Assembly: GCA_963713825.1 (NCBI GenBank)
Contig: CAVQNG010000003.1
Location: forward strand, 128,001-192,000
DNA: 64,000 nucleotides
Reading direction: 5' to 3'
Origin: an uncultured Acidobacteriota bacterium
GTDB taxonomy: Bacteria > Acidobacteriota > Thermoanaerobaculia > Multivoradales > JAHEKO01
Shown in pieces: positions 40,647 through 54,510 of the stretch. A program made the position numbers and the translations under genes. How positions within the stretch are numbered: the stretch's first letter is position 1; each line of letters begins with the position of its first letter. A model generated the notes under the pieces. It worked only from the letters and a program-made list of their open reading frames with translations. It made no database searches and was not told the DNA's origin.

Positions 40647-41205
40647 GGGGTGAGGCGTCCGGTCGTACCTCCCGGCTGGTCTTTGAGGGCTTGGGGGTTG
40701 AGGAGTCCGTCGTCCCTCCGGCCTATCTTTGCGGTCCTGGACCGATGGTCATCCTCTTTTTAGAGGCCCGTCCGAGTGGTCCGCAGGGGGGCGGCGTCGA
40801 CTACTCAGACTGCGACGGGGGGCCGCCGCCTTGTCTCGTCATCGCGCCCCATCTGTCTTGCTCATTGATGGTCCTTGCGCTGCGCTCGACTCGGCACCCC
40901 CTGTCGAACCACCCGAACGAACCTCTGGCACCGACGGTGCCAGATCGGCTAAGGGGTCTTCTGAGGCGGAGGGGCATGGTCGGGTGAGGCCGCAGACTCA
41001 GGAGACCCCTTGGTCGGTCCTCGTCTTGGAACGGTGCAAGGCCTCGTCAATGCCTCTCCACTTGATGAGGGTTCAGCGTGGGGACACCTCCAGGGGGTTG
41101 GTTGCTGTGGAAGGGAGGAGAACCTCCTGGGGGCGCTGCGTCGGACCCCTAGACAACGGCCAGGTGTCCTTGGACCAGCGCCTGCGCACCACCCGGGCGG
41201 ACCTC
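40647..41205. repeat. Cluster of dispersed repeats: inverted B part (40647-40702), element A copy 3 (40763-40925), B 5' part (40967-41010), decayed inverted A end (41178-41205)
   Basis: By-eye alignment to 6469-6631, 8228-8391 and 8498-8613. Lies between convergent genes. Confidence 0.75.
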
Positions 41206-41219
41206 AATACGACAGCGGC

Positions 41220-42305
41220 TCAACGATCTTCAGTGGAATCAACAGAGCCTTCTAGCAGGACCCGCTCGTGCAGTGCGTCGAGGAGCACGACCGTCGCGTC
41301 GAAGTTCTGCTGGATCTCTCCGTGGGTCTCCTGAGAGATCCCCCTGTAGGGCCTGGCGATCAGGGACACCTTTTGATTCAGCACTCGCAGAGTCATGTCG
41401 GTGTAGCTCGGTGCCCAGAGATTCTTGGGGAAGCGGGTCGGGGCGTACTCAGCCAACTTCCAAGCAAGCTCTGCCACTTCACCGCCAGTCAACTCCAACT
41501 CGATCGGCTTCGAGTAGCCATCGACCGAGTCGCGAAGTCTGGTACTGGCCATGACTCCCTCCACATCCAGGATGAACTCGGACGCGGCTTGCCCACCCGC
41601 ACCATCATTCATCCTCTGAAAGTGGATCCCGAGCGTCACGGGGTCGAGCTCACCCGAAGCGACCTTCTCCAACCCCTCCTCCAGGCTCTCAGCGCCAATC
41701 CCTGTCGCTGCCGGTTCCTCGCAGGAATCGAGCAGGCTGTTCACCAGTTGCGCAAACGACTCGGACTGCACCCCTCGGTTGATCTGAAGCACCTCTTTCT
41801 CGGCACCTGCCACCGAGACTCTCAGAGAGCAGACCACGGAGCGGGCACTGTCCGCCTGCATCCGATCCGGCTCCGGAGAGCCACCGTAGCGGCCGGGTAG
41901 CGAAGCGTAGTCTGCAACCAGGAGTTGCTGCAGCAGACCCGCAATCTCTGACTCGGTCAACTGGAACTGCAGCTCGCCGCCCCAAATGGCCACCCCGGGC
42001 TCGAAGATCTCCACCGACCTGTACTCCGAGCCACCTCGGCAGCCAGCCTGCAGATAGAAGCCGCCGCGCGCTCCGGGATCGGCCGCGGCTCTCTCCAAGC
42101 CGGCACCGAATCGAGCTGTGGTCTCGGAGTCCACGGCGCCGTCTGCCGACGCACCGCTCTGGCTGGAGGTGGGGTCTTCCTGCCTGATGTTGGGGCTTTC
42201 ACCACACGCGATCTGCAGCAGTACTGCAAGGAGAGCGAGAACCCAACCAACCTCGAGGCTCTTCGCCTTGTTCTGGAGTCGAGCCACAGTCTCGGTTTCG
42301 ATCAT
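41220..42305 (-). CDS. Hypothetical lipoprotein with two similar domains
   Basis: Hydrophobic stretch ending LQIAC (lipobox-like). Two repeats of the pattern LT..E.A.L...L......P..Y/W. Confidence 0.7.
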   Translation of the reverse strand: MIETETVARLQNKAKSLEVGWVLALLAVLLQIACGESPNIRQEDPTSSQSGASADGAVDSETTARFGAGLERAAADPGARGGFYLQAGCRGGSEYRSVEIFEPGVAIWGGELQFQLTESEIAGLLQQLLVADYASLPGRYGGSPEPDRMQADSARSVVCSLRVSVAGAEKEVLQINRGVQSESFAQLVNSLLDSCEEPAATGIGAESLEEGLEKVASGELDPVTLGIHFQRMNDGAGGQAASEFILDVEGVMASTRLRDSVDGYSKPIELELTGGEVAELAWKLAEYAPTRFPKNLWAPSYTDMTLRVLNQKVSLIARPYRGISQETHGEIQQNFDATVVLLDALHERVLLEGSVDSTEDR

Positions 42306-42543
42306 AGGGCCAGGAATATAGCAGCGCGGCATGTGCGGGGCGCAGCGCGAGGCATCATTGACGGCCCTGTTGCGTTTTCATTTGCTCAGATCCGGCCTGG
42401 TTCTGTAGGATGACACCAACTTGTCTCCCTAGACCTGCCGGGGGTTTGCCTGGTTGTCTCGATGCAACGGGAGACCCCCCGGCGAGTGGCTCACGGGTAC
42501 CACTGCGCCACGTGGCAGTCCGACGTTCGAACAGGAGGTACTC

Positions 42544-44286
42544 ATGAGCAAGACCCTGACCCTTTTCGTGATCCTGTTGGTGACTCTGCTGGGCCTGGCT
42601 TTCGTTTCGTCCAGATCGCTGCAAGATCGAGCCGAATCAGGAGCAGTCCTCAAGCCCTCACCGGCCTCTCCAGCTGGCATTCGCGGCTCAGGTCCGAGTG
42701 GTGGCCCTTCCAGCGACGCGGGCGTTTTTCAGGCTAACGGGCCCTATCGGGTCCGACTGAGTGAAGTCCAGACCGGTTTCGTTCCGGACCTGAATGTTGT
42801 TGCACCGCCGGCTGACATGCCCATTTCCGATGCCGAGGCAGAGCTCCTGCGCCAGAGGGCCATGCTCATGCCGCCGGATAGTGACGTCCAGATCGCGACT
42901 TCGGCACCCGCTAGCCTGGCACCTAAGCTCGGTGTCAGCTTCCAGGGCCTGGACGCCGAGGACTCCAATTCTTCTGGGGTCAGCACTCCGCCCGATCCCG
43001 AGCTAGGGGTCGGTAAGGACTACGTCATTCCAGTGGTCAACGTCTCGTTCAAGATCTACGACAAGACCGGTGCCGTGGTTCAGAACACGACCACTTTCGC
43101 TTCCTTCATGTCGGCCAATTCAGACTGCGTCGGGGTCTTCGACCCGAACGTCGCCTACGACGAGGCCGAGGATCGTTACATCCTGGGTATCGACGCCAAC
43201 GGCACGGACTACTGTGTGGCGGTGAGCGCGAATCCAGGCGATGTCGACAATTGGAACCTCTACAGCATTCCAACGCTGCAGGGCTGTGGGACCTTTCACG
43301 ACTACCCGCACATCGGAGTCGGTCCCGACCTGATCGTCATGGGAGCGAACCAATTCGCCGGCGGTTTCTGCGAGGGGAGGGTCTGGGCGATGGACAAGGC
43401 GGCCATGTATGCCGGCAACGCCATGAGCTTCGCTACAAAGAGCACGAGCGGCGACGGCACGCCAATGCCGGCCAACTATCACGGTGACGACATCACCAAT
43501 GCCTCACCCGAGGCGACTCCGTCTCACTGGTTCATGACCGAGACCTTCGATGGCTGCACCCACAACGTCTGGACCTGGGACGATCCGCTCAGTGGTGCCA
43601 GCCCGACCAGGGGCTCCAACCTGAATCTGTGCACTGCGTCCGGAGTCAGCGCCGGGTTCCCGGTCAGCTGGCCGCAGCAGGGAGGCAACAACCTGCAAGG
43701 CAACGACTGGCGGGGACAGTCCAGCGAATTGATGAACGGCATCATCACCATGACGAACCAGACGATTTCTTGTAATCCTGGTAGTGGCACGGTGGACTGC
43801 GTCCGTTGGGCGCAGATCAACCCCACCACCAATACGATCGTGGACGCGGGCGTTCTCGGGTCCAATGGTGACTACAGAACCTTTGCCAACGGCGTCTCGA
43901 ACTCATGCGGGGACATGGCGGTCGGCTACTCGAAGGGAAGCAGCTCGACCTTTCCCTCGACCTATGTCACCGGCCGTCTGAGCACCGATCCGGCAGGCAC
44001 CCTGCAGGCCGAGACCCTCCTCAAAGCGGGCGAGGGGACATTCACCTGCTTTGACGGCTCGCCTCACAGGTGGGGTGACTACACCGGCATGACGATCGAC
44101 CCGGATGGGGCCACCTTCTGGTACCTGGGTCAGTACTCGAAGCCGGGAGCTCACGCCGTTTGCGACTGGAGCACCTACATCGGCTCCTTCACTTTCGATG
44201 GCTGCTCGCCGGCAGACGTCATCTTTTCGGACGGTTTCAAGTCCGGAGATACTACGCGTTGGAGTAGCACGGTCGGTGGACCGTAG
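42544..44286 (+). CDS. Secreted protein of unknown function with C-terminal IFxDGFxSGD motif
   Basis: AGGAGG SD, signal peptide, PPDP..GVG, FDP...YD, DYP, RWGDY..M.IDP motifs; ends DVIFSDGFKSGDTTRWS. Confidence 0.8.
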   Translation: MSKTLTLFVILLVTLLGLAFVSSRSLQDRAESGAVLKPSPASPAGIRGSGPSGGPSSDAGVFQANGPYRVRLSEVQTGFVPDLNVVAPPADMPISDAEAELLRQRAMLMPPDSDVQIATSAPASLAPKLGVSFQGLDAEDSNSSGVSTPPDPELGVGKDYVIPVVNVSFKIYDKTGAVVQNTTTFASFMSANSDCVGVFDPNVAYDEAEDRYILGIDANGTDYCVAVSANPGDVDNWNLYSIPTLQGCGTFHDYPHIGVGPDLIVMGANQFAGGFCEGRVWAMDKAAMYAGNAMSFATKSTSGDGTPMPANYHGDDITNASPEATPSHWFMTETFDGCTHNVWTWDDPLSGASPTRGSNLNLCTASGVSAGFPVSWPQQGGNNLQGNDWRGQSSELMNGIITMTNQTISCNPGSGTVDCVRWAQINPTTNTIVDAGVLGSNGDYRTFANGVSNSCGDMAVGYSKGSSSTFPSTYVTGRLSTDPAGTLQAETLLKAGEGTFTCFDGSPHRWGDYTGMTIDPDGATFWYLGQYSKPGAHAVCDWSTYIGSFTFDGCSPADVIFSDGFKSGDTTRWSSTVGGP

Positions 44287-44363
44287 GAGGATCCGAGCTG
44301 ACACGCTCCTCGGGCTCGATTGCAAGCTCCGACGAGGCGAAGACAAATATGGGCCGGGCAGTT

Positions 44364-44837
44364 CTACTGCCTGGCCCTTTTGCCGTCTTCTGCAACTCGC
44401 ATGAGCTGGAGGACCTTGGCGACAGCCGGTACGGCTCCGACCATGGAGAGAGGAACTCCCTTGTCGGCGAGAATCCGTTTTGCCTTGAGTAGGATCTCGA
44501 GGGCGGGAACGTTGACCAACGGGCTACCGGCCAGGTCCAACTCGATCTGATTGGCCCCCTTCATCGCCAACCGCTGGGCCAATTTGCTGATCTCGATGCC
44601 ACCCTCACGGTTGATGTAGCCCTGTGTGCGGATTCTCGCCGAGGTCCCATCCCGCTTCACCGTCAGTTCCAGGGACACGCTCCACCCGGTACCAGAGTGC
44701 TTCGCAGTGGCTCTCTCTCGGCCCGATCCCATTTCACCTGCTCCCATTTCGCCCGGCTGGTAGGAGTGGCGCCCCCCGGCACTCATCATCGAACGAAGGA
44801 ACTCCCTACCTCCCGCTCGCTGATCTCCGCCGTTCAT
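44364..44837 (-). CDS. STAS-domain protein (anti-sigma antagonist-like)
   Basis: GYIN...IELDLAGSPLVNVPALEILL...V.KVLQLM is a STAS pattern. Start position uncertain. Confidence 0.6.
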   Translation of the reverse strand: MNGGDQRAGGREFLRSMMSAGGRHSYQPGEMGAGEMGSGRERATAKHSGTGWSVSLELTVKRDGTSARIRTQGYINREGGIEISKLAQRLAMKGANQIELDLAGSPLVNVPALEILLKAKRILADKGVPLSMVGAVPAVAKVLQLMRVAEDGKRARQ

Positions 44838-44928
44838 GGATCGTCCCCCGTTCTGATACGCGACAGTGGCTTCGGCTCGCCGCAGCGCAGATCCGTTGGT
44901 CAGATACCAATCAATGAATCGAAATGCC

Positions 44929-44944
44929 TGCATACCCTGTGCCA
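44929..44944 (-). promoter_or_regulatory. Candidate sigma54 promoter for the STAS gene
   Basis: TGGCACAGGGTATGCA on the minus strand, GG-N10-GC. Confidence 0.55.
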
Positions 44945-44983
44945 TACTGCTCGAGGCAGCCGAACCTGGGAGACCCGGAAATC

Positions 44984-46930
44984 ATGAGCGTCCCGTCGAT
45001 CACCCCCTATGTGGTTGGACAGTGGGTCCGTGGTGAGCGTTTCTACGGCCGCCAGAACCATCTCCAGGAAATCCTCGCAGGTCCCAGAGAAAGCCTGTGG
45101 TTGTTGGGAACTCGCCGTATCGGCAAGACTTCCCTGTTGCGACAGCTGGAGTGGATGGCGTCGCAGAGACCCGAGCTGGGGTATCTACCTCTGTTCTGGG
45201 ATCTGCAAGGCACCGACGATCCCGCTGAGCTGCATCTGAGCTTTCACGATGCGCTCCTGGACTCTGAAGAGCGCTGGTCCGAGCTGGGAATCGAGGTCGC
45301 AACGCTCGATCCCGACGATCTTTTTGCCAGTCTGACGCACCTGCGGCGCCAGATTCGCACGACCGGCCGCCGTTTGCTGCTGCTCTGCGACGAGGTCGAG
45401 GAGTTGATCCAACTTCAACTCCGAGACGCATCGCTCTTGAGCAAGATGCGGCGTGCCCTACAGGCGGGTGAAGAGATAAGGGTCGTACTGGCTTCGACGA
45501 TTCGCTTGTGGGCTCTCGCCGGGCAGCGCGTTGACACCTCCCCATTCCTTCTTGGCTTCTCGCCGCCCCTGTTCCTGTCCTCCTTAGAGGACGAGGAAGC
45601 GCGATCACTGGTCGTTCAGGATCATCTGGATGATGCGCTTCGACCTGTTCTGAGCGCTCAGGATGTACAGCAAATCTGCGATCACTGTTCCAATCATCCC
45701 TACCTGCTGCAGCTCGTTTCCAAGCGCTTTCTCGAGGCGGGAGATCTGGCGTCGGCCGTCGAGGAAGTCATGGCCGACGACATGGTCGCTCACTTCTTCG
45801 CTGTCGACTTTCGGATGCTAGGCGCCGAGGAGAAGAGAGTTCTGCGTGCTTTGCGCCACCAGGACGAGTTACCACTGGAGACCTTGACCAAGGACCCGGC
45901 CGACACCCACTCGCTCGAGAGCAGTCTGTTACGGCTCGAAGAGCTCGGCTTCCTCCGAAGACCCAGTCCGAGAACCTACTCCCTCGCCAACCCGTTCTTC
46001 CAGCATTGGCTGAAGGAGCTGCCCGAGGCCACGTTGCCGGGTACCTCGCCAGACTCGGCCGGGGACGACTTGCAGGATCTCGCGAAGGGGGAAGGCGGTG
46101 CCGTCCTGGTGGACAACCGCTATCTGCTGCTCGAGCAGATCGGAGAGGGCGGCATGGGCAGGGTCTTTCTGGCCACGGACCGCCTTCTTCGAACACGGGT
46201 GGCGATCAAGATCCTGCGCCCGGAGTTCTCGGAAGAGCCACAGATCCTGGAGCGTTTTCGCCGGGAGATCATGCTTTCCCGTGACCTGGGTCACCCGAAC
46301 GTGCTTCGTGTCTACCACCTCGGCCAGGACGAAAGCCGGCGGTACCTGACCATGCAGTGGGTCGAAGGTCCAGATCTAGGTCAACTACTCGCTGACACAG
46401 GCCCCCTCGAGGAGTCCAGGACCGTCCAGATTGCAGTCAAGCTGGCCTCGGCACTGGAGGCGGCGCACCAACGGGGTGTGATCCATCGCGACATCAAGCC
46501 CCAGAACATCCTCCTCGACCAGGAATCAGAACCTCTGCTGACCGACTTCGGACTGGCGCGCGAGCTCGAGGACGACGGAATCACCAGTTCGGGGATGTTC
46601 CTGGGAACTCCCAACTATGCGTCTCCCGAACAAGCCTCGGCTCTGCCGCTGGACGCAAGATCCGATCTCTACTCCTTCGGGGTCGTTCTGTTCGAAATGT
46701 CCACCGGCAAGCGACCCTTCGCAGCGGATAGCGCCGCCGAAGTGCTGCAAGAGCACCGTGCGACTCCGCCGCCGGATCCGAGGTCTTTGGCGCCCGATCT
46801 CTCCACCGGATTCTCGTCAATTATCCTCCGCTGCCTGGAAAAGAGCCCCGATCGGCGGTTCGAATCGGCCGCCGAACTGCGCCAGGCTCTCGAGACTCTG
46901 GACTACATTCCCAATCGCTCGCTGTCCTGA
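44984..46930 (+). CDS. STAND-like P-loop ATPase fused to a C-terminal Hanks-type Ser/Thr kinase (cytoplasmic)
   Basis: PYVVG..V....FYGR, GTRRIGKTS, LLLCDEVE, HPYLLQ, then IGEGGMG, VAIK, HRDIKPQN, DFG, SPEQ. No TM segment. Confidence 0.9.
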   Translation: MSVPSITPYVVGQWVRGERFYGRQNHLQEILAGPRESLWLLGTRRIGKTSLLRQLEWMASQRPELGYLPLFWDLQGTDDPAELHLSFHDALLDSEERWSELGIEVATLDPDDLFASLTHLRRQIRTTGRRLLLLCDEVEELIQLQLRDASLLSKMRRALQAGEEIRVVLASTIRLWALAGQRVDTSPFLLGFSPPLFLSSLEDEEARSLVVQDHLDDALRPVLSAQDVQQICDHCSNHPYLLQLVSKRFLEAGDLASAVEEVMADDMVAHFFAVDFRMLGAEEKRVLRALRHQDELPLETLTKDPADTHSLESSLLRLEELGFLRRPSPRTYSLANPFFQHWLKELPEATLPGTSPDSAGDDLQDLAKGEGGAVLVDNRYLLLEQIGEGGMGRVFLATDRLLRTRVAIKILRPEFSEEPQILERFRREIMLSRDLGHPNVLRVYHLGQDESRRYLTMQWVEGPDLGQLLADTGPLEESRTVQIAVKLASALEAAHQRGVIHRDIKPQNILLDQESEPLLTDFGLARELEDDGITSSGMFLGTPNYASPEQASALPLDARSDLYSFGVVLFEMSTGKRPFAADSAAEVLQEHRATPPPDPRSLAPDLSTGFSSIILRCLEKSPDRRFESAAELRQALETLDYIPNRSLS

Positions 46931-47085
46931 TCTCCCAACTGCGGACCCTCGTCGGCTCCGTCGCGTCTTCGAGTGGAGGTGACCGAAATGCGCGACCGGA
47001 CGAAAGACAGCCGCCTGGGGTTCCACCTCCCCCTTTTTAATAGGGTGGCTGCTCGGAAGTCTCGTCACTTTGCAAGGAGACGACG

Positions 47086-47787
47086 ATGCTTCGACACCAT
47101 TCGCACCGTGTTCTATTGATTGGCTTGGCTTGCCTCGCGGCCGCGTTGCTCGCAATGCCCGCGACAGCCGGCGATGGACAATGGCACCTGCGTGTCCAGG
47201 CCGTCTGGGTCCAGCCCGACCTCGATTGGCGAATGTCCCCCGCGCCAGGCGATGTCGTCAGCGTGGATGCCGACGATGCCTGGGGCCTGGGAGTCAGTGG
47301 CGAATACCAGGTTTCGGATCTTCTCGGCGTTGAGCTGGGGATCATGCGAGCAGTTCCAGACGTCAATATCCTCCTCGAGGACACGCTCCTCGGAGTCTCC
47401 CTCAAGGCAACCGATGACCTGACCATGACACCCCTGAGTATCGGATTGAACTTCCATCTGACCCCCGGACAGCGCTTCGATCTCTATCTCGGACCGTTCC
47501 TGGCCTACGTGCTCTACAGCGACCTCGAGTGGAGAGTGAACGAGACGATCGACGTAGGTGGTGTGCCGATTGTCATCGACGAAACACTGCGCATGTCCGT
47601 CGCCAACGATCTGGCCTACGGAGCCGTTGCCGGTGTCGACATCCCGGTTGGCTCCAGGGGCTGGTACTTGAGCGGCACCTTGAAGTACATGGCTACCGAA
47701 TTGGACATCACCGACCCCGATGGAGACAGTGAGAACCTGAGCCTCGACCCCATCATCGTGGCAATCGGAGTGCGGTACTCCTTCTAG
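47086..47787 (+). CDS. OmpW-like 8-stranded outer-membrane beta-barrel
   Basis: AAGGAG SD, signal peptide, TPLSIGLNFH, YLGP, LDP....GVRYSF terminal Phe. Confidence 0.85.
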   Translation: MLRHHSHRVLLIGLACLAAALLAMPATAGDGQWHLRVQAVWVQPDLDWRMSPAPGDVVSVDADDAWGLGVSGEYQVSDLLGVELGIMRAVPDVNILLEDTLLGVSLKATDDLTMTPLSIGLNFHLTPGQRFDLYLGPFLAYVLYSDLEWRVNETIDVGGVPIVIDETLRMSVANDLAYGAVAGVDIPVGSRGWYLSGTLKYMATELDITDPDGDSENLSLDPIIVAIGVRYSF

Positions 47788-47870
47788 ACGGCTTCCTTGT
47801 CGAGGATCGCACGACTTTCTAGGGCCGATCGGGAACACCCTGGTCGGCCCTGATTCGCTGCGCATAGAGA

Positions 47871-49256
47871 TCAAAAGCTGAATATCGCGGACAGAGAGAT
47901 GGTGTCGACGAGCTCCGAGAAATCAATCGCTCCGTCGAGCTGGAAGCGTTCGAAGGCCATCCCGAACCCAACCGCATAGTGCATCTCGTCTCCGACTGGA
48001 CGAAGAAGGGCCTGCGTATATGGATTGTCGCTCGTTGCCCGCAGGACATGGTCCGGATCGAGCCAGGCACCTGCCCGCAGTGCAAGCAGCGGCCTGGATC
48101 CCAGGAACACGTATTCGCAACCGATGTGAACTTCATCGCCATCATCGACAGTTTGATCTTCGAGCTCCATGCTCTTCGCCATATCCGAGTAGGTGATTCG
48201 ATCCCACTCGAGCGCAGCGGTCCAGCGACCGCCAGGCGACCGGAAGGCAACACCTAGGCCGTAGGTATCCGGGTACTTTGCCGTCGGAAAGGCCTCGGAC
48301 TCGATCACGAATCCCGGCGGAAACCCCAGAGAGTTGGCCGGACCGAAGAGAGCGGCGCCCGTGATGTGGATCTCGGGGCCCTCGCGGAACTTGCCCCCCA
48401 GAGTCCAGGCCTGTGAAAATCTCCAAAGAAAACCACCGGTAAACCCCATGTCCTTGTCGTCCTGCGTCAGAGTGGTTGTGGTGACCAAGTTCTCGGGGCC
48501 AAAGGACGTGGGAGTTCCGAGCAGGTCGTAGGGGGCGTCCCACCGGTGAACCGAGCCGATCATCGTCACCTCGGCGTCGTAGAGCACCAGGCCGATACCC
48601 AGGCTCAAGCTGTCCGTGATCCTGACCGCCGATGAAAATCCATAAGAGGTGATCAGGGCATCGGCACTCGCCACCTGATCGAGGTAGCGATCCCGGGTGA
48701 GTCGGCCATCTTTGAAGAGTCCCTGGGTGAAGGCAGTGGATTCGAACTTCAGGTACAGATGGCGATAGAGAGCGAACGACCAACGTCCCCTTGGATAGAC
48801 GAATGAAAGAAAGGAAACACCCGTTGAGTCGTCTGATGAGATCCCGGTCCTCAAGCCGATCTCCGTGTCGAGACCGATGCCGGTCGGAGAACCCTGAACG
48901 TTGCCGCTGATTGTGAAGGGTGTCGAGTAGCTCCAGTGCCGGCCTTCGACAGAGACTTCGGGTTCAGCCAGCTGCACCAGGCCAGCGGGATTCGCGAAAG
49001 CTGCCGTGGCATCGTCGGCCAGCGCCAAGAAGGCTCCGCCGAGACCCAAACTCCGGGCTCCGGGATTGGCCAGGCTGAAGTGTGGCGTGAAGATGAGCTG
49101 GGCGAATTCGTTGGCTCTGACCGCCGGGGCAGAGCAAATCACCAACGCCACCAAGAGCAGGTCCTTCAGCCCTCGAGGGGTCCTCAGCGATCTGGGATAG
49201 TCGACTGGGGCTCGGCTTCCCGCGGCAGGTCTCAACCCTTCCGATAGCTCTGTCAT
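47871..49256 (-). CDS. FadL/OMPP1-like outer-membrane beta-barrel
   Basis: GARSLGLGGAFLALADDATAAFANPAGL N-terminal hatch motif, terminal SAIFSF. ATGA-coupled to the sigma fusion gene. Confidence 0.85.
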   Translation of the reverse strand: MTELSEGLRPAAGSRAPVDYPRSLRTPRGLKDLLLVALVICSAPAVRANEFAQLIFTPHFSLANPGARSLGLGGAFLALADDATAAFANPAGLVQLAEPEVSVEGRHWSYSTPFTISGNVQGSPTGIGLDTEIGLRTGISSDDSTGVSFLSFVYPRGRWSFALYRHLYLKFESTAFTQGLFKDGRLTRDRYLDQVASADALITSYGFSSAVRITDSLSLGIGLVLYDAEVTMIGSVHRWDAPYDLLGTPTSFGPENLVTTTTLTQDDKDMGFTGGFLWRFSQAWTLGGKFREGPEIHITGAALFGPANSLGFPPGFVIESEAFPTAKYPDTYGLGVAFRSPGGRWTAALEWDRITYSDMAKSMELEDQTVDDGDEVHIGCEYVFLGSRPLLALRAGAWLDPDHVLRATSDNPYTQALLRPVGDEMHYAVGFGMAFERFQLDGAIDFSELVDTISLSAIFSF

Positions 49257-50920
49257 GGCTGCACCCTCAGTCTTTCTTTCAGCCACTCGCGTGCCGCGGC
49301 CCAGTCGCTCTCAACGGTCCGTTTCGAGACTCCCAGGAACTGCGCGACCTCCTCGACGGTCATGCCAGCGAAGTACCGCAGCTCGACGACCCTGGCCTGC
49401 CTCTCGTCGAGCGCCGTCAGCTCCTCGATCGCTCGGTCGAGATCGATCATCTGTTCGCTGGACAGCAGCCCTTTGGGGTTGGCGAAAAGCTCTTCTGCCC
49501 ACGAAATCTGGAGCCACTCACCGCCCCGCTTGGCTCGCCCCCGTCCCCGCGCATGATCGATCAGGACCCGCCGCATCATCTTGGCTCCCATGGCGAAGAA
49601 ATGCGTGCGGCCCTGCCACTCCACCCGCGATTGGTCGACCAGCCGCAAGTAAGCCTCGTGGACCAGAGCCGTCGGTTGCAGGGTGTGATTGACCCGCTCC
49701 CGCCCCATGTACCGATGGGCCAGGCCCCGCAGCTCATCGTAGACCCTGGCCAGCAGCGCTTCCGGCGAGGCCCCTGCTCCTTCTGGCTGCCGTTCCATCT
49801 CAATCATGATCTCAGTGAGCTTCTGCGTGAAAGCCGTGGACTCGAGCTTCGACGACTGGGACCTTGGTTCGCTAGAGCTCGAGCCCTCCAGCCAGTGCCG
49901 GATGAAATCATTCCCCAGCCTGACGCGGTGATCCTCCGTTCGGATGACGAATCCCAGGTTCTCCAATCTCAGCAGGCTGCCGTTCAGGCCACCCTCTTCC
50001 GTTCGGAGGCGACTCTCGAGGGTTTCGCGACCCGCTGCCCCTGTCTCACCGAGGGCGCGCAGGACCTCCTGCTCCGTCCTGCTCAACATGCGGAAGTCCA
50101 CTGCGAAGAAATGGCTCACCATCTGGTCGGCCCGAACCCGGTCGAGGACCTCTTCCAGGTCGCCGATCTCCAGATACTTCTTGGCCACGATCTGCAGGAG
50201 GTAGGGGTGATTGCCGCAGGCCTGACAGATCTTCAGAGCCACCTCCGGCAGGAAAGTCGGCCTCGCTGCGCTCGGCAGGTGCTCCTGGAGAACCAGCGCC
50301 AGGGCCTCCTCCTCGGTCAGACCTGCCAGATACAGGGCCGGCGTGAAGCCGTGCAAGAAAGGAGAGGTATCTGCGGACTGCTCCGCCAGCCGCCAGAGCC
50401 GAATCGTCGAGGCCAGTACGAATCGAATGTCTGCCGTCGATTGCACCGCCCTTCGGAGCTTGGACAGCAGAGACCGATCCTTGCTCTGCAAATCGATCAA
50501 CTCCTCGGCCTCGTCGCACAGCAACAGCATCCTTCTGCCAGTGCCGCGAACTTGCCTACGCAGCCGAGCCAGGGAATCGAAGAGATCCTCTGCATCCAGG
50601 GATGACACCGAGACGCCGACTTCTGCCCAGCGCTCTTCCGAGTCCAGTAGGGCATCGTGGAAGCTCAGGTGCAGTTCCCTCGGCTCGGTGGCCCCCTGCA
50701 GATCCCAGAACAACGGCAGGTAGTCCAGATCCGGCGACGCGGTAGCGAGCTGCTCCAGTTGCTTCAAGACAGAGGTCTTGCCAACACGCCTAGTCCCCAG
50801 CAACCAGAGGCTGTCCCGTTGCCCATCCAGGATCTCTGCCAGCTGGGCACGACGCCCATAGAAGCGATCACCTCGCACCCATTGGCCCACAACGTAGGGC
50901 AGCAGGGGCGGACGAATCAC
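49253..50920 (-). CDS. STAND-like ATPase fused to a C-terminal ECF sigma factor (ECF43-like)
   Basis: GTRRVGKTS, LLLCDEAE, GNHPYLLQ, then VYDELR.LA, HTLQPTALVHEAYLRL, MRRVLIDHAR, VVELRYFAGM, TVESDW. GTGA-coupled to the upstream gene. Confidence 0.9.
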   Translation of the reverse strand: MIRPPLLPYVVGQWVRGDRFYGRRAQLAEILDGQRDSLWLLGTRRVGKTSVLKQLEQLATASPDLDYLPLFWDLQGATEPRELHLSFHDALLDSEERWAEVGVSVSSLDAEDLFDSLARLRRQVRGTGRRMLLLCDEAEELIDLQSKDRSLLSKLRRAVQSTADIRFVLASTIRLWRLAEQSADTSPFLHGFTPALYLAGLTEEEALALVLQEHLPSAARPTFLPEVALKICQACGNHPYLLQIVAKKYLEIGDLEEVLDRVRADQMVSHFFAVDFRMLSRTEQEVLRALGETGAAGRETLESRLRTEEGGLNGSLLRLENLGFVIRTEDHRVRLGNDFIRHWLEGSSSSEPRSQSSKLESTAFTQKLTEIMIEMERQPEGAGASPEALLARVYDELRGLAHRYMGRERVNHTLQPTALVHEAYLRLVDQSRVEWQGRTHFFAMGAKMMRRVLIDHARGRGRAKRGGEWLQISWAEELFANPKGLLSSEQMIDLDRAIEELTALDERQARVVELRYFAGMTVEEVAQFLGVSKRTVESDWAAAREWLKERLRVQP

Positions 50921-53349
50921 GCCACCTCCGGACGACCGATCGCTTCCACATCGTCTACGGTGATCGTCTCTGCACCGTTCTCGTAGGCCCGATTCACGAG
51001 GGCAATGCAGAGCTTCTGGATCAGATAAGGCCGCAGGCCCGTGAGCTCGATGATCCGTGACACGACGCCCTCCTCGAGCTTCAGCAGGTTGGCGATCGGC
51101 CGCTCGATCAAGGCTCGAGCATCTTCGACCCGGAAGGGCAGAACCTGGATCTCTTCGAAGAAGTTGTACCAGGGGCTGCCTTCTCGCTCCCATTGCTTCT
51201 TGATCTCCACACCGGAGACCACGGCGACGAGATTCTCAGCGAAGCTCTTCATGAATAGGCTCCGCAACCGCTGGTTGATCCTCGGGTCGTAGTCGTTCAG
51301 CTCATCGACCTCGTCGATCAACAGCACGAGCTTGACCTGCTTGCCGCTGCCCTCCGCCAAGCGCTGGATCACGGCGCGCAGATCGCGAACAAAGTCGCGG
51401 TGGGAGTACTCGACTTCGACGTTCAGGGAGCGCGATGGCGACAAGTCACCTAGATGAATTTCCAGGTCACTGAAGACATCGTCAGCCAGGGTTGCAAAGA
51501 ACCTGGTTTCCGGAGTGCCCTGCAAGTCGACGTATACGGGAAAGAAATCGTAGGTTGGATCGTCCAGCTCCCGCAATCGCTTCTTGAGATGGTGTTGGAT
51601 CGAAGTCTTGCCGATCCGCCGCTCACCGTAGAGCAGCAGGCTGTTGTTGTGGACGGTCTGGAGTATGCGATCGATGAGCCGGTCCCGTCCGAAGAAGAGG
51701 CCCTCGTCCAGCACCGGGGCACCTGCCACATAGGGATTGAGTCGACGGTGCCGGCGTCGAGCACGGCGATTTCGCCGAGCCACGACGAACCCGAGCGCCA
51801 GTGCTGCGACAACCGTGGCCATCGCTGCCGCGAGACGCGGAGACCGGAACCAGGGGCGGACAAGAGCCACGGCGTACTCACTGCTGGACGCGAGATCCTC
51901 CGCATCGGTAGCCACGACCCGGAACGTCTCGGGCCCGCCCCCGAGCACCGTGTCGACCCGGAATTCCGTGACGTAGGAGTCGCCAACTTGCTGATGGCTC
52001 GTGACTGCCTCCAGGTTCGAGCCCTTGCCATCGAAGCACTCGATGTCGACTGGCGAGTTGTCGATGATGACGCCACTGAGGCGAAACCCCGCATCGCGAA
52101 CCACTTGCACCTGGGAACCATCCTCCTGCGTCTGCCGAAAGTCGGCAAAACGGATAGCCGGAGGGATGTTGCCGGCGGCCCTGCCGAGCAGCACTCGGCT
52201 GAGCTGCTGGTAAGAGCGCGCAACGATCTCCATAGCCTGACTGTTGCCGGGCTCCAGAGCCAGCGCTCGATTCGCGGCGGACAGGGCACTCTCGAACCGG
52301 CGAGCCACGAGCTCGCTTTCGGCAGTCGCCAGTTCGGCCGCCAGGATCTGCCGGCTGGCCAGCTCTTCCTCCGCCAATGCTCGCGCTCCGACTAGACGAG
52401 ACTCGATGGCCTTGGCCTCCTCACCTCCGGCCTGCATGGCAATGACGGTCTGCAGTCTGTTCAGGGCCGCATCCAGTTGCCCGGCAGCCTCGAGTCCACG
52501 AACCGCCTCGAGCTCCTGCACGACGAACTCGGCCTGGGTCTTCTGCTGCCGCTGGGACTCGAGCTCGGTACGAAGGCGCTGCTGAGTGTCCTCCAACAGC
52601 CCCGAGATCTCCGGGTCGCCCGGCATCAGCTCCGCAGCTTCTCGAAAGCGGCCCGCCGCTGCCGCGTAGGACCCGGCGCTCAGAAGGGCTCGGCCTTCCG
52701 TCACCAGGAGCGCGGCACGAGTTTCTGCTCGAGCCTCCTGCTCCCGTTGTCTGGCTTCACCCAGCAGGGTCGCCATGAGGCTGGTCGCCTCGGGATCCTC
52801 GGGTGCCACCGCAAGCCCTCGACCCAGGGCTGTCATTGCCTGATCGGTTCTTCCTGCCGACCGCAGGTCCCGAGCTTCCCGAAGACTCTCCGCCAGAATC
52901 TGCCGGATTCGATCCTGATCCTCTGCCCAGCGGCTTTCGAGCCCCTGGACTGCTCTGGCACGGAGCGCTTCGAGCTCTTGGAACGAGCTCTGCGAACCCT
53001 CGATCGCACCCAGCCTCTCCTCGGTATCGAATGCCCGGAGCGCCGCCTCGTGCTGGCCGAGCGCAAGATAGGCCGTACCGAGCTTGAGATACGGCAGATA
53101 GTCGGTCGTGCGCATCCCATAGGTGCGCACCCTCACTCCCGAGTCACCCCGCCGCTGAATCGCCTGATTCAGCTCTTCGACCGCTTCTTCCCAGCGCTCG
53201 GCGCTGAGAGCCTCTTCGGCCCTTTGATAGTGCTGATACCAGAGGTCCGCCAGCAGGGGGCTGACTGCCACGAGGTTGGCGAGAAGGTAGATGCGAAGCG
53301 CCGGGGCGATTCGCACTCCAAGGATGCTGCGATGGGAGGATCCTGACAT
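50917..53349 (-). CDS. Single-pass membrane receptor-like protein: periplasmic TPR and beta domain, TM helix, cytoplasmic STAND-like ATPase
   Basis: Signal peptide, YLPYLKLG TPRs, beta-rich segment, TM at ~51781-51835 followed by RRNRRARRRHRR, then NPYVAG..FFGR, GERRIGKTS, LLIDEVD, PYLIQ. Start approximate. Confidence 0.87.
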   Translation of the reverse strand: MSGSSHRSILGVRIAPALRIYLLANLVAVSPLLADLWYQHYQRAEEALSAERWEEAVEELNQAIQRRGDSGVRVRTYGMRTTDYLPYLKLGTAYLALGQHEAALRAFDTEERLGAIEGSQSSFQELEALRARAVQGLESRWAEDQDRIRQILAESLREARDLRSAGRTDQAMTALGRGLAVAPEDPEATSLMATLLGEARQREQEARAETRAALLVTEGRALLSAGSYAAAAGRFREAAELMPGDPEISGLLEDTQQRLRTELESQRQQKTQAEFVVQELEAVRGLEAAGQLDAALNRLQTVIAMQAGGEEAKAIESRLVGARALAEEELASRQILAAELATAESELVARRFESALSAANRALALEPGNSQAMEIVARSYQQLSRVLLGRAAGNIPPAIRFADFRQTQEDGSQVQVVRDAGFRLSGVIIDNSPVDIECFDGKGSNLEAVTSHQQVGDSYVTEFRVDTVLGGGPETFRVVATDAEDLASSSEYAVALVRPWFRSPRLAAAMATVVAALALGFVVARRNRRARRRHRRLNPYVAGAPVLDEGLFFGRDRLIDRILQTVHNNSLLLYGERRIGKTSIQHHLKKRLRELDDPTYDFFPVYVDLQGTPETRFFATLADDVFSDLEIHLGDLSPSRSLNVEVEYSHRDFVRDLRAVIQRLAEGSGKQVKLVLLIDEVDELNDYDPRINQRLRSLFMKSFAENLVAVVSGVEIKKQWEREGSPWYNFFEEIQVLPFRVEDARALIERPIANLLKLEEGVVSRIIELTGLRPYLIQKLCIALVNRAYENGAETITVDDVEAIGRPEVA

Positions 53350-53613
53350 CGACTTTAACGTCCAGGCCCCATGCCGAAACGATCCTACTCCCAAAATCGA
53401 CTCCGAGATCTTCGTCTTCCCACTTCGTGGCCAGATCCGACCGAAGCATCGCACCGACGGCTCTCCACTTCGGTCTCTTTGCCTTCGAGACTCTAACGCG
53501 ATGGAAACGGCAAGACTCCGCAGCCTGCCCTAGCTTTTCAGCCCTGGGATTTCAGACCAGATAGACTCATTTGCCTGTTGCCCCATTCATTACTTGCCCT
53601 ACCGAGGCCAATC

Positions 53614-54510
53614 ATGAATCGACTCCCCTGCGCTCTCTTCCTGCTTCTACTGCTCAGCCCGATCGCAGGTGAGGCCGCCGATTCGGTGAAAATCTACATC
53701 TCCGCTGACATGGAGGGATTGGCGGGCGCCGTCACCAGTGAGCAACTCGGCCCCTCGGGTTTCGAATACGGCCAGTTCAGGGAGTTCATGACCGCGGAGG
53801 TCAATGCCGCCATCGAGGCGGCTCGCGACGCCGGCGCCACCGAGATCCTGGTCAGCGATTCCCACGGCAACGGCCAGAATCTGCTACTCGACAAGCTTCC
53901 CGCCGATGTCCAGGTGGTGCGGTCCTGGCCACGACCACTGGGCATGATGGAGGGAATCGACGAGAGCTTTGATGGCGCGATCTTCATCGGGTACCACACC
54001 AGTACGACGAATCCGGATGGCGTGCGAGCCCATACCCTCTCGAGTGCCAACCTGACCGCTCTCAGGCTCAACGGCATTCCGCTGCCGGAAGCGGGACTCA
54101 ACGCCGCGATTGCCGGCCATTTCGGAGTTCCGGTCCTGATGATCTCCGGTGACAATGCGATTGTCGAAGAGGCTCGAGAACTCCTCGGCGACATCGAAGG
54201 GGCCGAAGTCAAGGAGGCTTTGAGCTTCCACTCGGCAAAGACTCTGGTACCCGAGGCGGCCTGCGACCTGATTCGCCAGAGGGTTGGAACCGCCATGGAG
54301 CGCCTCGACAGCTTCACTGCGTACACCCTGGACACTCCTGTGGAGCTGGAAGTCAGCTTCAAGCACTACCAGCCAGCCCAACTCCTCGCCTATCTCTCTA
54401 TTGTCGAGCAGGTCGACTCTCACACCATCCGGTTTATCGGCGAGGACATGGTGGAGGTCTCCAAATTCCTCCAGTTCATCCTCGACTATCAGGTCCCGCT
54501 GGCCCCTTAG
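53614..54510 (+). CDS. M55 family D-aminopeptidase (DppA-like) with signal peptide
   Basis: IYISADMEG, DSHG, IGYH, AHT, ISGD motifs. Confidence 0.92.
   Translation: MNRLPCALFLLLLLSPIAGEAADSVKIYISADMEGLAGAVTSEQLGPSGFEYGQFREFMTAEVNAAIEAARDAGATEILVSDSHGNGQNLLLDKLPADVQVVRSWPRPLGMMEGIDESFDGAIFIGYHTSTTNPDGVRAHTLSSANLTALRLNGIPLPEAGLNAAIAGHFGVPVLMISGDNAIVEEARELLGDIEGAEVKEALSFHSAKTLVPEAACDLIRQRVGTAMERLDSFTAYTLDTPVELEVSFKHYQPAQLLAYLSIVEQVDSHTIRFIGEDMVEVSKFLQFILDYQVPLAP

Follow-up and report, generated by a model that had tools for sequence, protein, structure and literature searches.

The described systems that come closest to the locus analysed here pair an extracytoplasmic function (ECF) sigma factor of group ECF43 with a Hanks-type kinase, as in EcfP-PknT of Vibrio parahaemolyticus and EcfK-PknS of Xanthomonas citri. 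According to the accessible sections of PMC8999054 and PMC13147305, ECF43 members lack the acidic DxxD motif and have the consensus QTTA, with the phospho-Thr conserved in 88%; the sigma factor is intrinsically inactive in the EcfP case, and activation comes from a neighbouring Hanks kinase, whose co-occurrence is the hallmark of the group. PknS, as presented in the accessible sections of PMC13147305, is a transmembrane Hanks-type receptor kinase with an extracellular sensor module of its own; for EcfP/PknT, the article reports use of an E. coli reporter. We analysed a gene cassette at positions 44364-53349 of a 64,000-nt stretch of contig CAVQNG010000003.1 from an uncultured Acidobacteriota bacterium (this whole stretch is called the window, and gene coordinates given without a locus name refer to it). 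We think it rather probable that the cassette is a self-contained envelope-to-transcription signalling system, in which a type-I transmembrane receptor acts with soluble partners that bear nucleoside triphosphatase (NTPase)-winged-helix modules and have as outputs a Hanks kinase (in the protein AK) and an ECF sigma factor (in the protein AE).

Like EcfP and EcfK, AE is of the PF07638/TIGR02999 type, lacks DxxD and has a Thr at the phospho-site (QPTA as against QTTA), and here too a cognate Hanks kinase is encoded in the locus and an anti-sigma factor is not. PknT is built in the same way as PknS, whereas the cassette kinase is soluble and sensing appears to be delegated to a separate transmembrane receptor with a paralogous NTPase. 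The cassette kinase and sigma factor also differ from the described pairs in that both bear an N-terminal NTPase-winged-helix module, and in some relatives they form a single polypeptide.

Three further groups of systems share part of this design. Sensor/helper NLR pairs and two-gene nSTAND systems set paralogous NOD-like NTPases side by side, one as sensor and one as effector or output, and plant NLR pairs act by activation-induced oligomerization. The cassette, by contrast, has its sensor NTPase as the tail of a periplasm-facing transmembrane receptor, and in place of cell death its output is transcription (a sigma factor or an OmpR-type DNA-binding domain) or a kinase. MalT and the AfsR/SARP-LAL regulators likewise fuse an NTPase switch to a DNA-binding or transcription output, and relatives of the cassette module carry Trans_reg_C and are named SARP family; there, one cytoplasmic protein also contains the TPR or sensor repeats, whereas the cassette has its sensor on a second, membrane protein and a sigma factor plus a kinase as output. 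FecA-FecR-FecI also combines an outer-membrane barrel, an inner-membrane single-pass protein and an ECF sigma factor in one operon, but the cassette barrel is of the FadL type and not a TonB-dependent transducer, the cassette sigma factor is of a phosphorylation-dependent type, and Pfam found no FecR or TonB-receptor domains in the six cassette proteins. The kinase-to-ECF43 logic is already known. Full-text searches of articles returned no description of the soluble kinase, of large NTPase-winged-helix extensions on kinase and sigma factor, of a separate receptor bearing a paralogous NTPase, or of natural kinase-sigma single chains. An earlier reading of the DNA by sequence alone (the sequence-only reading) had not recognized the architecture as a described one, and these searches agree with it.

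Organization of the cassette

The window belongs to a 5.4-Mb genome that is 96% complete. Open reading frame (ORF) calling, together with Pfam and NCBIfam scans, confirmed six genes on the strands claimed by the sequence-only reading (bit scores are followed by their cut-offs; matches are from Pfam):

44364..44945, minus strand: STAS-like gene, 193 aa; STAS_2, E 1.3e-6, 28.9 bits, just below the cut-off of 29.2
44984..46930, plus strand: AK, ATPase-winged helix-Hanks kinase; Pkinase, E 1.7e-51
47086..47787, plus strand: OmpW-like 8-stranded outer-membrane barrel with a signal peptide; OMP_b-brl, 40.4 vs 28.7 bits; OmpW, 37 vs 24
47871..49256, minus strand: FadL/TodX-like outer-membrane barrel; Toluene_X, E 2.8e-13, 49.6 vs 29.7 bits
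49253..50920, minus strand: AE, ATPase-winged helix-ECF sigma factor; Sigma70_ECF, E 7e-54, 183 vs 21.1 bits
50917..53349, minus strand: receptor, 810 aa; TPR families; AAA_16, 33.4 vs 32.6 bits

Reading of the junctions bore out the translational coupling proposed for receptor, AE and FadL: the receptor stop and AE start share GTGA, with GGAGG ahead of the overlap, and the AE stop and FadL start share ATGA. The STAS-like gene is divergent from the AK gene, which lies ~2.3 kb away from the AE gene. The AK start at 44984 agrees with that of a 648-aa database protein that is 99% identical, and AE is 100% identical to a 555-aa database protein. No Pfam anti-sigma domain was found in any of the six proteins; the sequence-only reading had likewise seen no evident anti-sigma factor.

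A shared ATPase module

The receptor tail and the regions N-terminal to the sigma factor and to the kinase had been read as three paralogous ATPase modules, and pairwise comparison substantiates this. Between AK and AE, identity of the module is 60% over 342 aa (E 8e-139); the receptor module is 29% identical to that of AE over 251 aligned columns (E 3e-14) and 32% identical to that of AK over 155 aligned columns (E 3e-9). Chance is excluded because the 5.4-Mb genome has exactly three copies of the module, every one inside the cassette.

All three modules contain a Walker A motif G.RR.GKTS, in full G(T/E)RR(I/V)GKTS, a Walker B motif hhhhDE.(E/D)EL, beginning LLL(C/I)DE, and a (H/R)PYL.Q motif. 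The additional motif V....F(Y/F)GR, which the sequence-only reading gave for all of them, is present, but with a spacing longer by one residue in the receptor copy. The Walker A form GxxxxGK[ST] and the Walker B form hhhhD[DE] by which STAND ATPases are recognized occur in all three proteins. The receptor module ends after the helical domain and is without the C-terminal winged helix (~100 aa) of AE and AK.

A model of the AE module, built on an alignment of 19 relatives, consists of a P-loop nucleotide-binding domain, a helical domain and a winged helix (pLDDT 90, pTM 0.90); the effector module thus has the three-part architecture of NOD proteins. The closest solved folds found by Foldseek were the PF01637 ATPases PABY2304 (2qen, TMq 0.70) and SSO1545 (2fna, 0.59), followed by plant NLR NB-ARC and resistosome chains (TMq 0.52-0.59) and, lower, by ORC/Cdc6 chains (0.41-0.49). 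The module shares with all of these the P-loop domain/helical domain/winged-helix fold and a G-x-(H/R)-P motif situated in the helical domain. It differs from them in that its sequence is only 11-19% identical to theirs, in an extra conserved N-terminal PYVVGQWVRG motif, and in being paired with a membrane-anchored paralogue.

Curated family models gave scores below threshold. The Pfam scores for ATPase_2 (PF01637) were 27.4 bits for AK, 21.7 for AE and 28.5 for the receptor, against a gathering score of 33.2; nSTAND1 gave 22.4 bits for AK (cut-off 27.1) and no match for AE, and nSTAND6 gave 17.4 for the receptor (cut-off 27.7). Some relatives exceed an nSTAND threshold, for example P0057 with 44.5 and P0063 with 38.6 bits. 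Because the ATPase_2 and nSTAND1 scores stay below their cut-offs, the term "STAND-like" used in the sequence-only reading is fair for the architecture only, and even so only approximate: no curated STAND family model is above threshold, and the PF01637 fold is the closest.

The sigma factor and the kinase

The features of AE and AK are as follows:

49883-50920, minus strand: AE ATPase-winged-helix module; Walker A 50771-50797, Walker B 50498-50527
~49265-49786, minus strand: AE ECF43-like sigma domain; Sigma70_ECF, TIGR02999
49667..49678, minus strand: QPTA motif of sigma region 2.2, aa 415-418; Thr417 is the predicted phospho-acceptor
AK aa 1-344, plus strand: ATPase-winged-helix module; Walker A 45107-45133, Walker B 45377-45406
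46142-46159, plus strand: AK kinase motif GEGGMG
46199-46210, plus strand: AK kinase motif VAIK
46484-46507, plus strand: AK kinase motif HRDIKPQN
46544-46552, plus strand: AK kinase motif DFG
46622-46630, plus strand: AK kinase motif SPE

AE has the two sigma domains (sigma2 and sigma4) of an ECF factor of the PF07638/TIGR02999 kind, and its NCBIfam score for TIGR02999 is 197.1 bits against a cut-off of 126.15. A phmmer alignment set AE 'HTLQPTALVHEAY' against '...KATAEDLTSETF' of the ECF sigma factor 6dxo, with QPTA opposite TAED; QPTA therefore occupies the position of the canonical acidic DxxD or (D/T)AED. The Thr is invariant over 85 related ECF domains (85/85), and the Q is absent from only one of them (84/85). 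The ECF43-like character claimed for the sigma factor is upheld by this absence of DxxD and by the invariant Thr. Along with the uncharged region 2.2 with Thr in third position, AE has a Hanks kinase gene nearby and no anti-sigma domain, as ECF43 members do. AE matches the ECF43 phospho-switch signature, and on this basis Thr417 would be phosphorylated. The window genome encodes five PF07638 sigma factors.

The N-terminal module is a large addition for a protein of this kind. In the accessible text of PMC7826278, N-terminal extensions of ECF sigma factors are rarer and generally shorter, and only ECF121, ECF36s4 and ECF12s1 are named.

AK retains every Hanks catalytic motif (GxGxxG, VAIK, HRDxKxxN, DFG and SPE) in intact form, which bears out its reading as a Ser/Thr kinase.

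The receptor

The receptor is composed of the following parts, all on the minus strand:

aa 1-34: signal peptide, with a conserved cleavage-like site (A-x-A followed by D(L/F)WY) in relatives
51835-53247: periplasmic TPR/long-helix array and beta-sandwich, aa 35-505, from TPR matches and the model
51778-51834: transmembrane helix, aa 506-524
51742-51777: Arg-rich stop-transfer segment of twelve mostly Arg residues
50920-51741: cytoplasmic ATPase, aa 537-810; Walker A 51601-51627, Walker B 51298-51324

Because of the Arg-rich segment after the transmembrane helix, the positive-inside rule would place the ATPase in the cytoplasm. The receptor model is locally confident (pLDDT 88, pTM 0.46) and has the periplasmic TPR/long-helix array followed by a beta-sandwich. 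Mean column identity is 72% in the ATPase tail, over 21 species, and 49% in the periplasmic domain; the stronger conservation of the tail fits a constrained interaction surface there.

Three contigs of the metatranscriptome library X1 (378, 334 and 361 nt) map to the coding region of the periplasmic domain, 51693-52946, with 1, 16 and 1 differing letters, respectively. We take them as a weak hint of receptor expression in situ, though DNA carry-over is possible. The library covered 13% of the words sampled, and the remaining cassette is without cover in X1, which carries no weight.

A modelled contact between receptor and effector ATPases

Structure prediction of contacts between the ATPase domains had been put forward as a check on the sequence-only reading. 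It was carried out for one pair, in which the receptor tail was represented by a 21-row alignment and the AE module by one of 19 rows, and the prediction for this pair passes its controls. The complex scored 0.74 and the best of three controls 0.42; the score mark is reached by 58 of 80 solved complexes and by 2 of 110 mismatched pairs, a calibration that is approximate since the alignments were our own. Between runs, at least 89% of the contacts agree, and the partner pLDDT does not fall below 84.

In the model, an invariant receptor helix, PRINQRLRSLFMKSF, and the GSPWYNFF loop are set against the nucleotide-site face of the effector. The effector side of the contact comprises the PYVVGQWVRG motif, the P-loop (R44-T49), D73-G76 and the Walker B residue D136. 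The geometry of the modelled interface is like that of neighbouring protomers in AAA+/STAND rings. The model supports binding of the receptor ATPase to the effector ATPase.

Fusions and the history of the split form

Two related loci encode ATPase, Pkinase and Sigma70_ECF in one ORF (L013:1897-4449, 850 aa; L015:146-2659, 837 aa). When the best 120 clusters (90% identity) of a search with full-length AE were classified, 55 were ATPase-ECF, 31 ATPase-kinase-ECF, 29 ATPase-kinase and 5 Trans_reg_C-ATPase. The triple fusion is no assembly accident, because 31 of these 120 carry it. Relatives of AE have only generic database names ("ECF-type sigma factor", "TIGR02999 family", "protein kinase", "SARP family"). 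A receptor-type ATPase can also be joined to an effector-type one: the distant 1874-aa protein P0063 consists of a Reg_prop/Y_Y_Y/Ig sensor, a transmembrane segment, a receptor-type ATPase (1031-1292) and an effector-type ATPase with a winged helix-turn-helix (wHTH) domain (1318-1649). Its C-terminal ~225 residues have no Pfam match. An apparent fusion of the same two ATPase types in P0057 (478 aa) was rejected as a probable frameshift artefact for its low-complexity, out-of-frame-looking tail.

ATPase-ECF and ATPase-kinase fusions thus recur among the 120 best clusters, and receptor and effector genes are adjacent in 54 of 73 loci (see below). The fusions provide Rosetta-stone arguments for coupling of receptor ATPase to effector ATPase and of kinase to sigma factor, and a functional link between kinase, sigma factor and ATPase is well supported.

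A total of 113 modules were placed in a quick maximum-likelihood tree with the Trans_reg_C forms as root; in it, the ATPase-kinase forms are basal and the triple-fusion clades come next. A 57-row clade (SH-aLRT 97) interleaves ATPase-ECF and ATPase-kinase modules, and within the tree the AE clade of the window (9 rows) is sister to the AK clade (10 rows; SH-aLRT 97). The label changes required number 12 for AE and 12 for AK. In another lineage, an ATPase-ECF and an ATPase-kinase protein (P0172/P0238) share 89% identity across the 345-aa module and part abruptly right after ...FFRRWL, a pattern that suggests a recent duplication or gene conversion confined to the module. These patterns fit an origin of the split form by fission of a triple fusion through duplication, followed by repeated duplication or gene conversion that would have kept the modules alike, the order of events depending on the root chosen.

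The module family is broad: a whole-family search counted 1904 representative clusters when matches up to E 1e-3 were admitted, and 177 with the limit set to 1e-30. Among the 81 top representatives of at least 400 aa, the domains fused to the module were Pkinase (19), Trans_reg_C (13), Sigma70_ECF (3), FHA (3), SIR2_2 (2), and SpoIIE, HTH_18, EAD2, HEPN_Swt1 and CHAT (1 each).

Conservation of the cassette

In a comparison of 41 related genomes, with G000 counted, 11 contained the module (same family, 8 of 24 other genomes; same genus, 3 of 5), and in these 11 it always stands beside a receptor-type copy. A wider set was obtained by a pattern scan of one genome per species and mapped with hidden Markov models. 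It comprises 73 loci from 73 species-level genomes, including 53 of Acidobacteriota, 14 of Pseudomonadota (13 Gammaproteobacteria, several of them Woeseiaceae) and 1 of Myxococcota; the loci were picked through the N-terminal motif of the effector module and so represent near relatives only. Their gene content is as follows:

65/73 loci: receptor-type ATPase present
63/73 loci: receptor-type ATPase with a periplasmic domain
54/73 loci: receptor ATPase directly upstream of effector ATPase, same strand
52/73 loci: FadL present
42/73 loci: FadL within 400 nt of a core gene
15/73 loci: FadL directly upstream of receptor, same strand
13/73 loci: OmpW present
9/73 loci: PF07638-like ECF within the locus
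4/73 loci (L022-L025): STAS present
42/73 loci: effector in the ATPase-kinase form (29 alone, 9 with a further ATPase, 4 with ATPase-ECF)
2/73 loci: effector as a single ATPase-kinase-ECF ORF
4/73 loci: split pair of ATPase-ECF and ATPase-kinase, as in the window; one of the four is L022, from G004
29/73 loci: effector ATPase without kinase or ECF; N-terminal OmpR-type Trans_reg_C in those inspected

The loci without a receptor are mostly short contigs. These counts modify the sequence-only reading. The layout with three ATPases (receptor, AE and AK), which it took as the system, is a minority form found in 4 of 73 loci, receptor plus AK being commoner, and the OmpW and STAS genes, which it counted as parts of the cassette, are accessory (13 and 4 loci). 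The core of the cassette is receptor, ATPase-effector and FadL-like barrel. The barrel is the most constant companion gene and is often co-transcribed with the receptor, and it may feed or contact the sensor. The STAS-like gene was also found in G004 (of which L022 is a contig), G005 and G003, solely beside the split-type kinase gene. Four genomes with receptor plus AK or related systems have one to nine unlinked PF07638 sigma factors elsewhere.

The 3761 remaining ORFs of the 73 loci were clustered in a search for other partner genes, and none was universal; the neighbours found were clade-specific only, with 14 loci encoding a beta-lactamase-fold protein and 9 a DUF5666/DUF2807 protein.

Several variants were seen among the loci. 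A second, smaller type consists of a short receptor-type ATPase that lacks the periplasmic domain and, after it, a Trans_reg_C-ATPase-wHTH protein (L029:17606-19815, L031:18245-20570, L034, L044, L046, L070, L072, L089). It adjoins FadL-like and OmpW-like barrels and a beta-lactamase-fold protein of ~1100 aa, and often shares its locus with a receptor plus ATPase-kinase system. The version in metagenome-assembled genomes (MAGs) of Gammaproteobacteria/Woeseiaceae (L026, L028, L032, L035, L040, L047, L048, L056-L058) has the receptor divergent from a Trans_reg_C-ATPase-wHTH gene, a DUF5666/DUF2807 gene between them, and then one to three FadL-like genes. Its receptor ATPase tail is 65-71% identical to that of the window, an identity across phyla that suggests horizontal transfer. 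The receptor, FadL and ATPase-kinase genes of L023:7165-15450 are split into several frames, which may reflect either frameshifts from assembly or a decaying cassette.

Upstream of the receptor start, at ~40-60 nt, a short block (G)GTAGGAT(C) occurs in the window (53390-53410), L022, L090 and L094. It may represent a -10-like element; a -35 to go with it was not found. A consensus scan of 44000-53800 gave one promoter-like site (mean of shuffles 1.5) and three terminator-like sites (mean 5.6), both at chance level.

The genes of the window outside 44364-53349 are not conserved together with the cassette and are housekeeping in look; those flanking it encode ClpB, TypA, an M55 peptidase and cytochromes. 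At 40729-44286, upstream of the STAS-like gene, ORFs of 201, 370 and 610 aa have no Pfam family (E up to 1e-5); the 610-aa ORF is common to only 3 of the 73 related loci. Downstream of the cassette, between 54555 and 61148, the genes encode a protein with an HZS_alpha domain, an FG-GAP/ASPIC protein and a 960-aa fusion of a multihaem cytochrome with a beta-propeller, all unrelated to the cassette.

Proposed mechanism and alternatives

From the gene content, the fusions and the one complex model, we infer the following course of events. The periplasmic domain of the receptor would sense a ligand or the status of the envelope, possibly together with the co-transcribed FadL-like barrel. Sensing would alter the nucleotide or assembly state of the receptor NTPase, which would then dock on the nucleotide-site face of the effector modules and bring together AK and AE, whose modules are near-copies. 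AK would phosphorylate Thr417 (QPTA, sigma region 2.2) of an intrinsically inactive sigma factor, and the phospho-sigma would bind core RNA polymerase and turn on its regulon. The nucleation of a hetero-oligomer that unites kinase and sigma factor, and the trans-envelope sensing with a role for the barrels, both proposed in the sequence-only reading, would belong to the same scheme.

A more far-reaching version, which we offer tentatively and consider possible rather than probable, is a bacterial transcription "signalosome". Here an NLR-like NTPase at the end of the transmembrane receptor would template the assembly of the paralogous NTPase-kinase and NTPase-sigma proteins, much as a sensor NLR does with its helpers, and proximity-induced phosphorylation of an ECF43-type sigma factor would be the output. 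The modules borne by kinase and sigma factor would be kept alike by duplication or gene conversion so as to co-assemble, and the receptor/effector-NTPase pair would be re-used with kinase, sigma, kinase-sigma and OmpR-type outputs.

A number of observations weigh against an envelope-to-transcription system. The evidence for it comes entirely from sequences of uncultured MAGs. A Foldseek search with the periplasmic domain returned generic TPR proteins only, with TM < 0.2, and no ligand can be named from it. An ECF gene lies inside just 9 of the 73 fetched loci, and most receptor plus AK systems have no kinase substrate nearby. The FadL-like barrel could equally be a regulated target gene and not a signalling part. 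An alignment of receptor-upstream regions (4 loci) and a bipartite k-mer search (6 regions) revealed no shared ECF-type -35/-10 pair, and these searches found no autoregulatory promoter motif upstream of the operon. The complex score may partly mirror likeness to solved AAA+/ORC-type oligomers, and it concerns the receptor and AE pair only. Finally, the SIR2, HEPN, CHAT and EAD domains fused to some relatives are typical of conflict systems.

Other readings of the cassette divide on what the ATPase modules do. The module of AE could be a built-in, anti-sigma-like tether, with the receptor holding AE at the membrane in the off state and a signal freeing it, and the kinase a separable second input. 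Such a mechanism would suit the lack of a Pfam anti-sigma domain in the six proteins, the gene order of receptor then AE, not AK, in the window, L022, L023 and L025, and the backing of a receptor-AE contact by the complex model (0.74 vs 0.42). We nevertheless judge it unlikely: a sigma factor without the acidic DxxD and with the ECF43 phospho-Thr is predicted to be intrinsically inactive rather than sequestered, the commoner loci have the receptor followed by AK or by the triple fusion, and release cannot part kinase from sigma factor in a triple fusion. Physical coupling would be dispensed with altogether if kinase and sigma factor were an ordinary ECF43 pair, the receptor ATPase served another role (e.g., FadL/OmpW biogenesis or gating), and the module were shared through domain shuffling. 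FadL accompanies the receptor in 52 of 73 loci, in 15 directly upstream on the same strand, and the ECF gene is missing from most of the 73, both of which favour this loose association. It is hard to reconcile, however, with the adjacency of receptor-type and effector-type ATPases in 54 of 73 loci whatever the output domain, with the fusion of both types in P0063 and the GTGA overlap in the window, or with a receptor-AE complex model that passes its controls (0.74 vs 0.42), and we regard it as quite improbable.

The conflict-type fusions in relatives (SIR2_2 in 2, HEPN_Swt1, CHAT and EAD2 in 1 each of 81 representatives) and the weak nSTAND1 matches in Pfam raise the question of a defence system, in which an nSTAND-type sensor pair would act with the kinase as anti-invader effector while the sigma factor drives a defence regulon; two-gene nSTAND2 systems are described in the accessible part of PMC8195603. 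PADLOC, however, gave only generic kinase-domain models (PD-T4-6, mad6) and no families for AE, receptor, FadL, OmpW or STAS, and the neighbours are housekeeping genes (ClpB, TypA, M55 peptidase, cytochromes). The sensor is moreover predicted to be periplasmic and paired with outer-membrane barrels, and the outputs of close relatives are transcription factors. A defence role is thus very improbable, and we rejected it on the PADLOC result and the genomic context.

Implications

In the characterised PknS-EcfK case, as given in the accessible sections of PMC13147305, the sensing step lies inside the transmembrane kinase. As an envelope-to-transcription system, the cassette would assign sensing, switching and phosphorylation to separate modules with one NTPase domain in common, and nature supplies the combinations ATPase-kinase, ATPase-sigma, ATPase-kinase-sigma and receptor-ATPase-ATPase. 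It thereby offers a testable model for the coupling of a soluble Hanks kinase to a membrane receptor, for an NLR-like NTPase pair that drives bacterial transcription, and for N-terminal extensions of sigma factors as large regulatory domains.

The system is widespread among Acidobacteriota from marine and soil habitats and among Woeseiaceae-like Gammaproteobacteria, abundant uncultured groups in which signalling is essentially unstudied. If the signalosome version were true, envelope-to-gene signalling would have a further, distinct class next to the one-component, two-component and anti-sigma/ECF systems.

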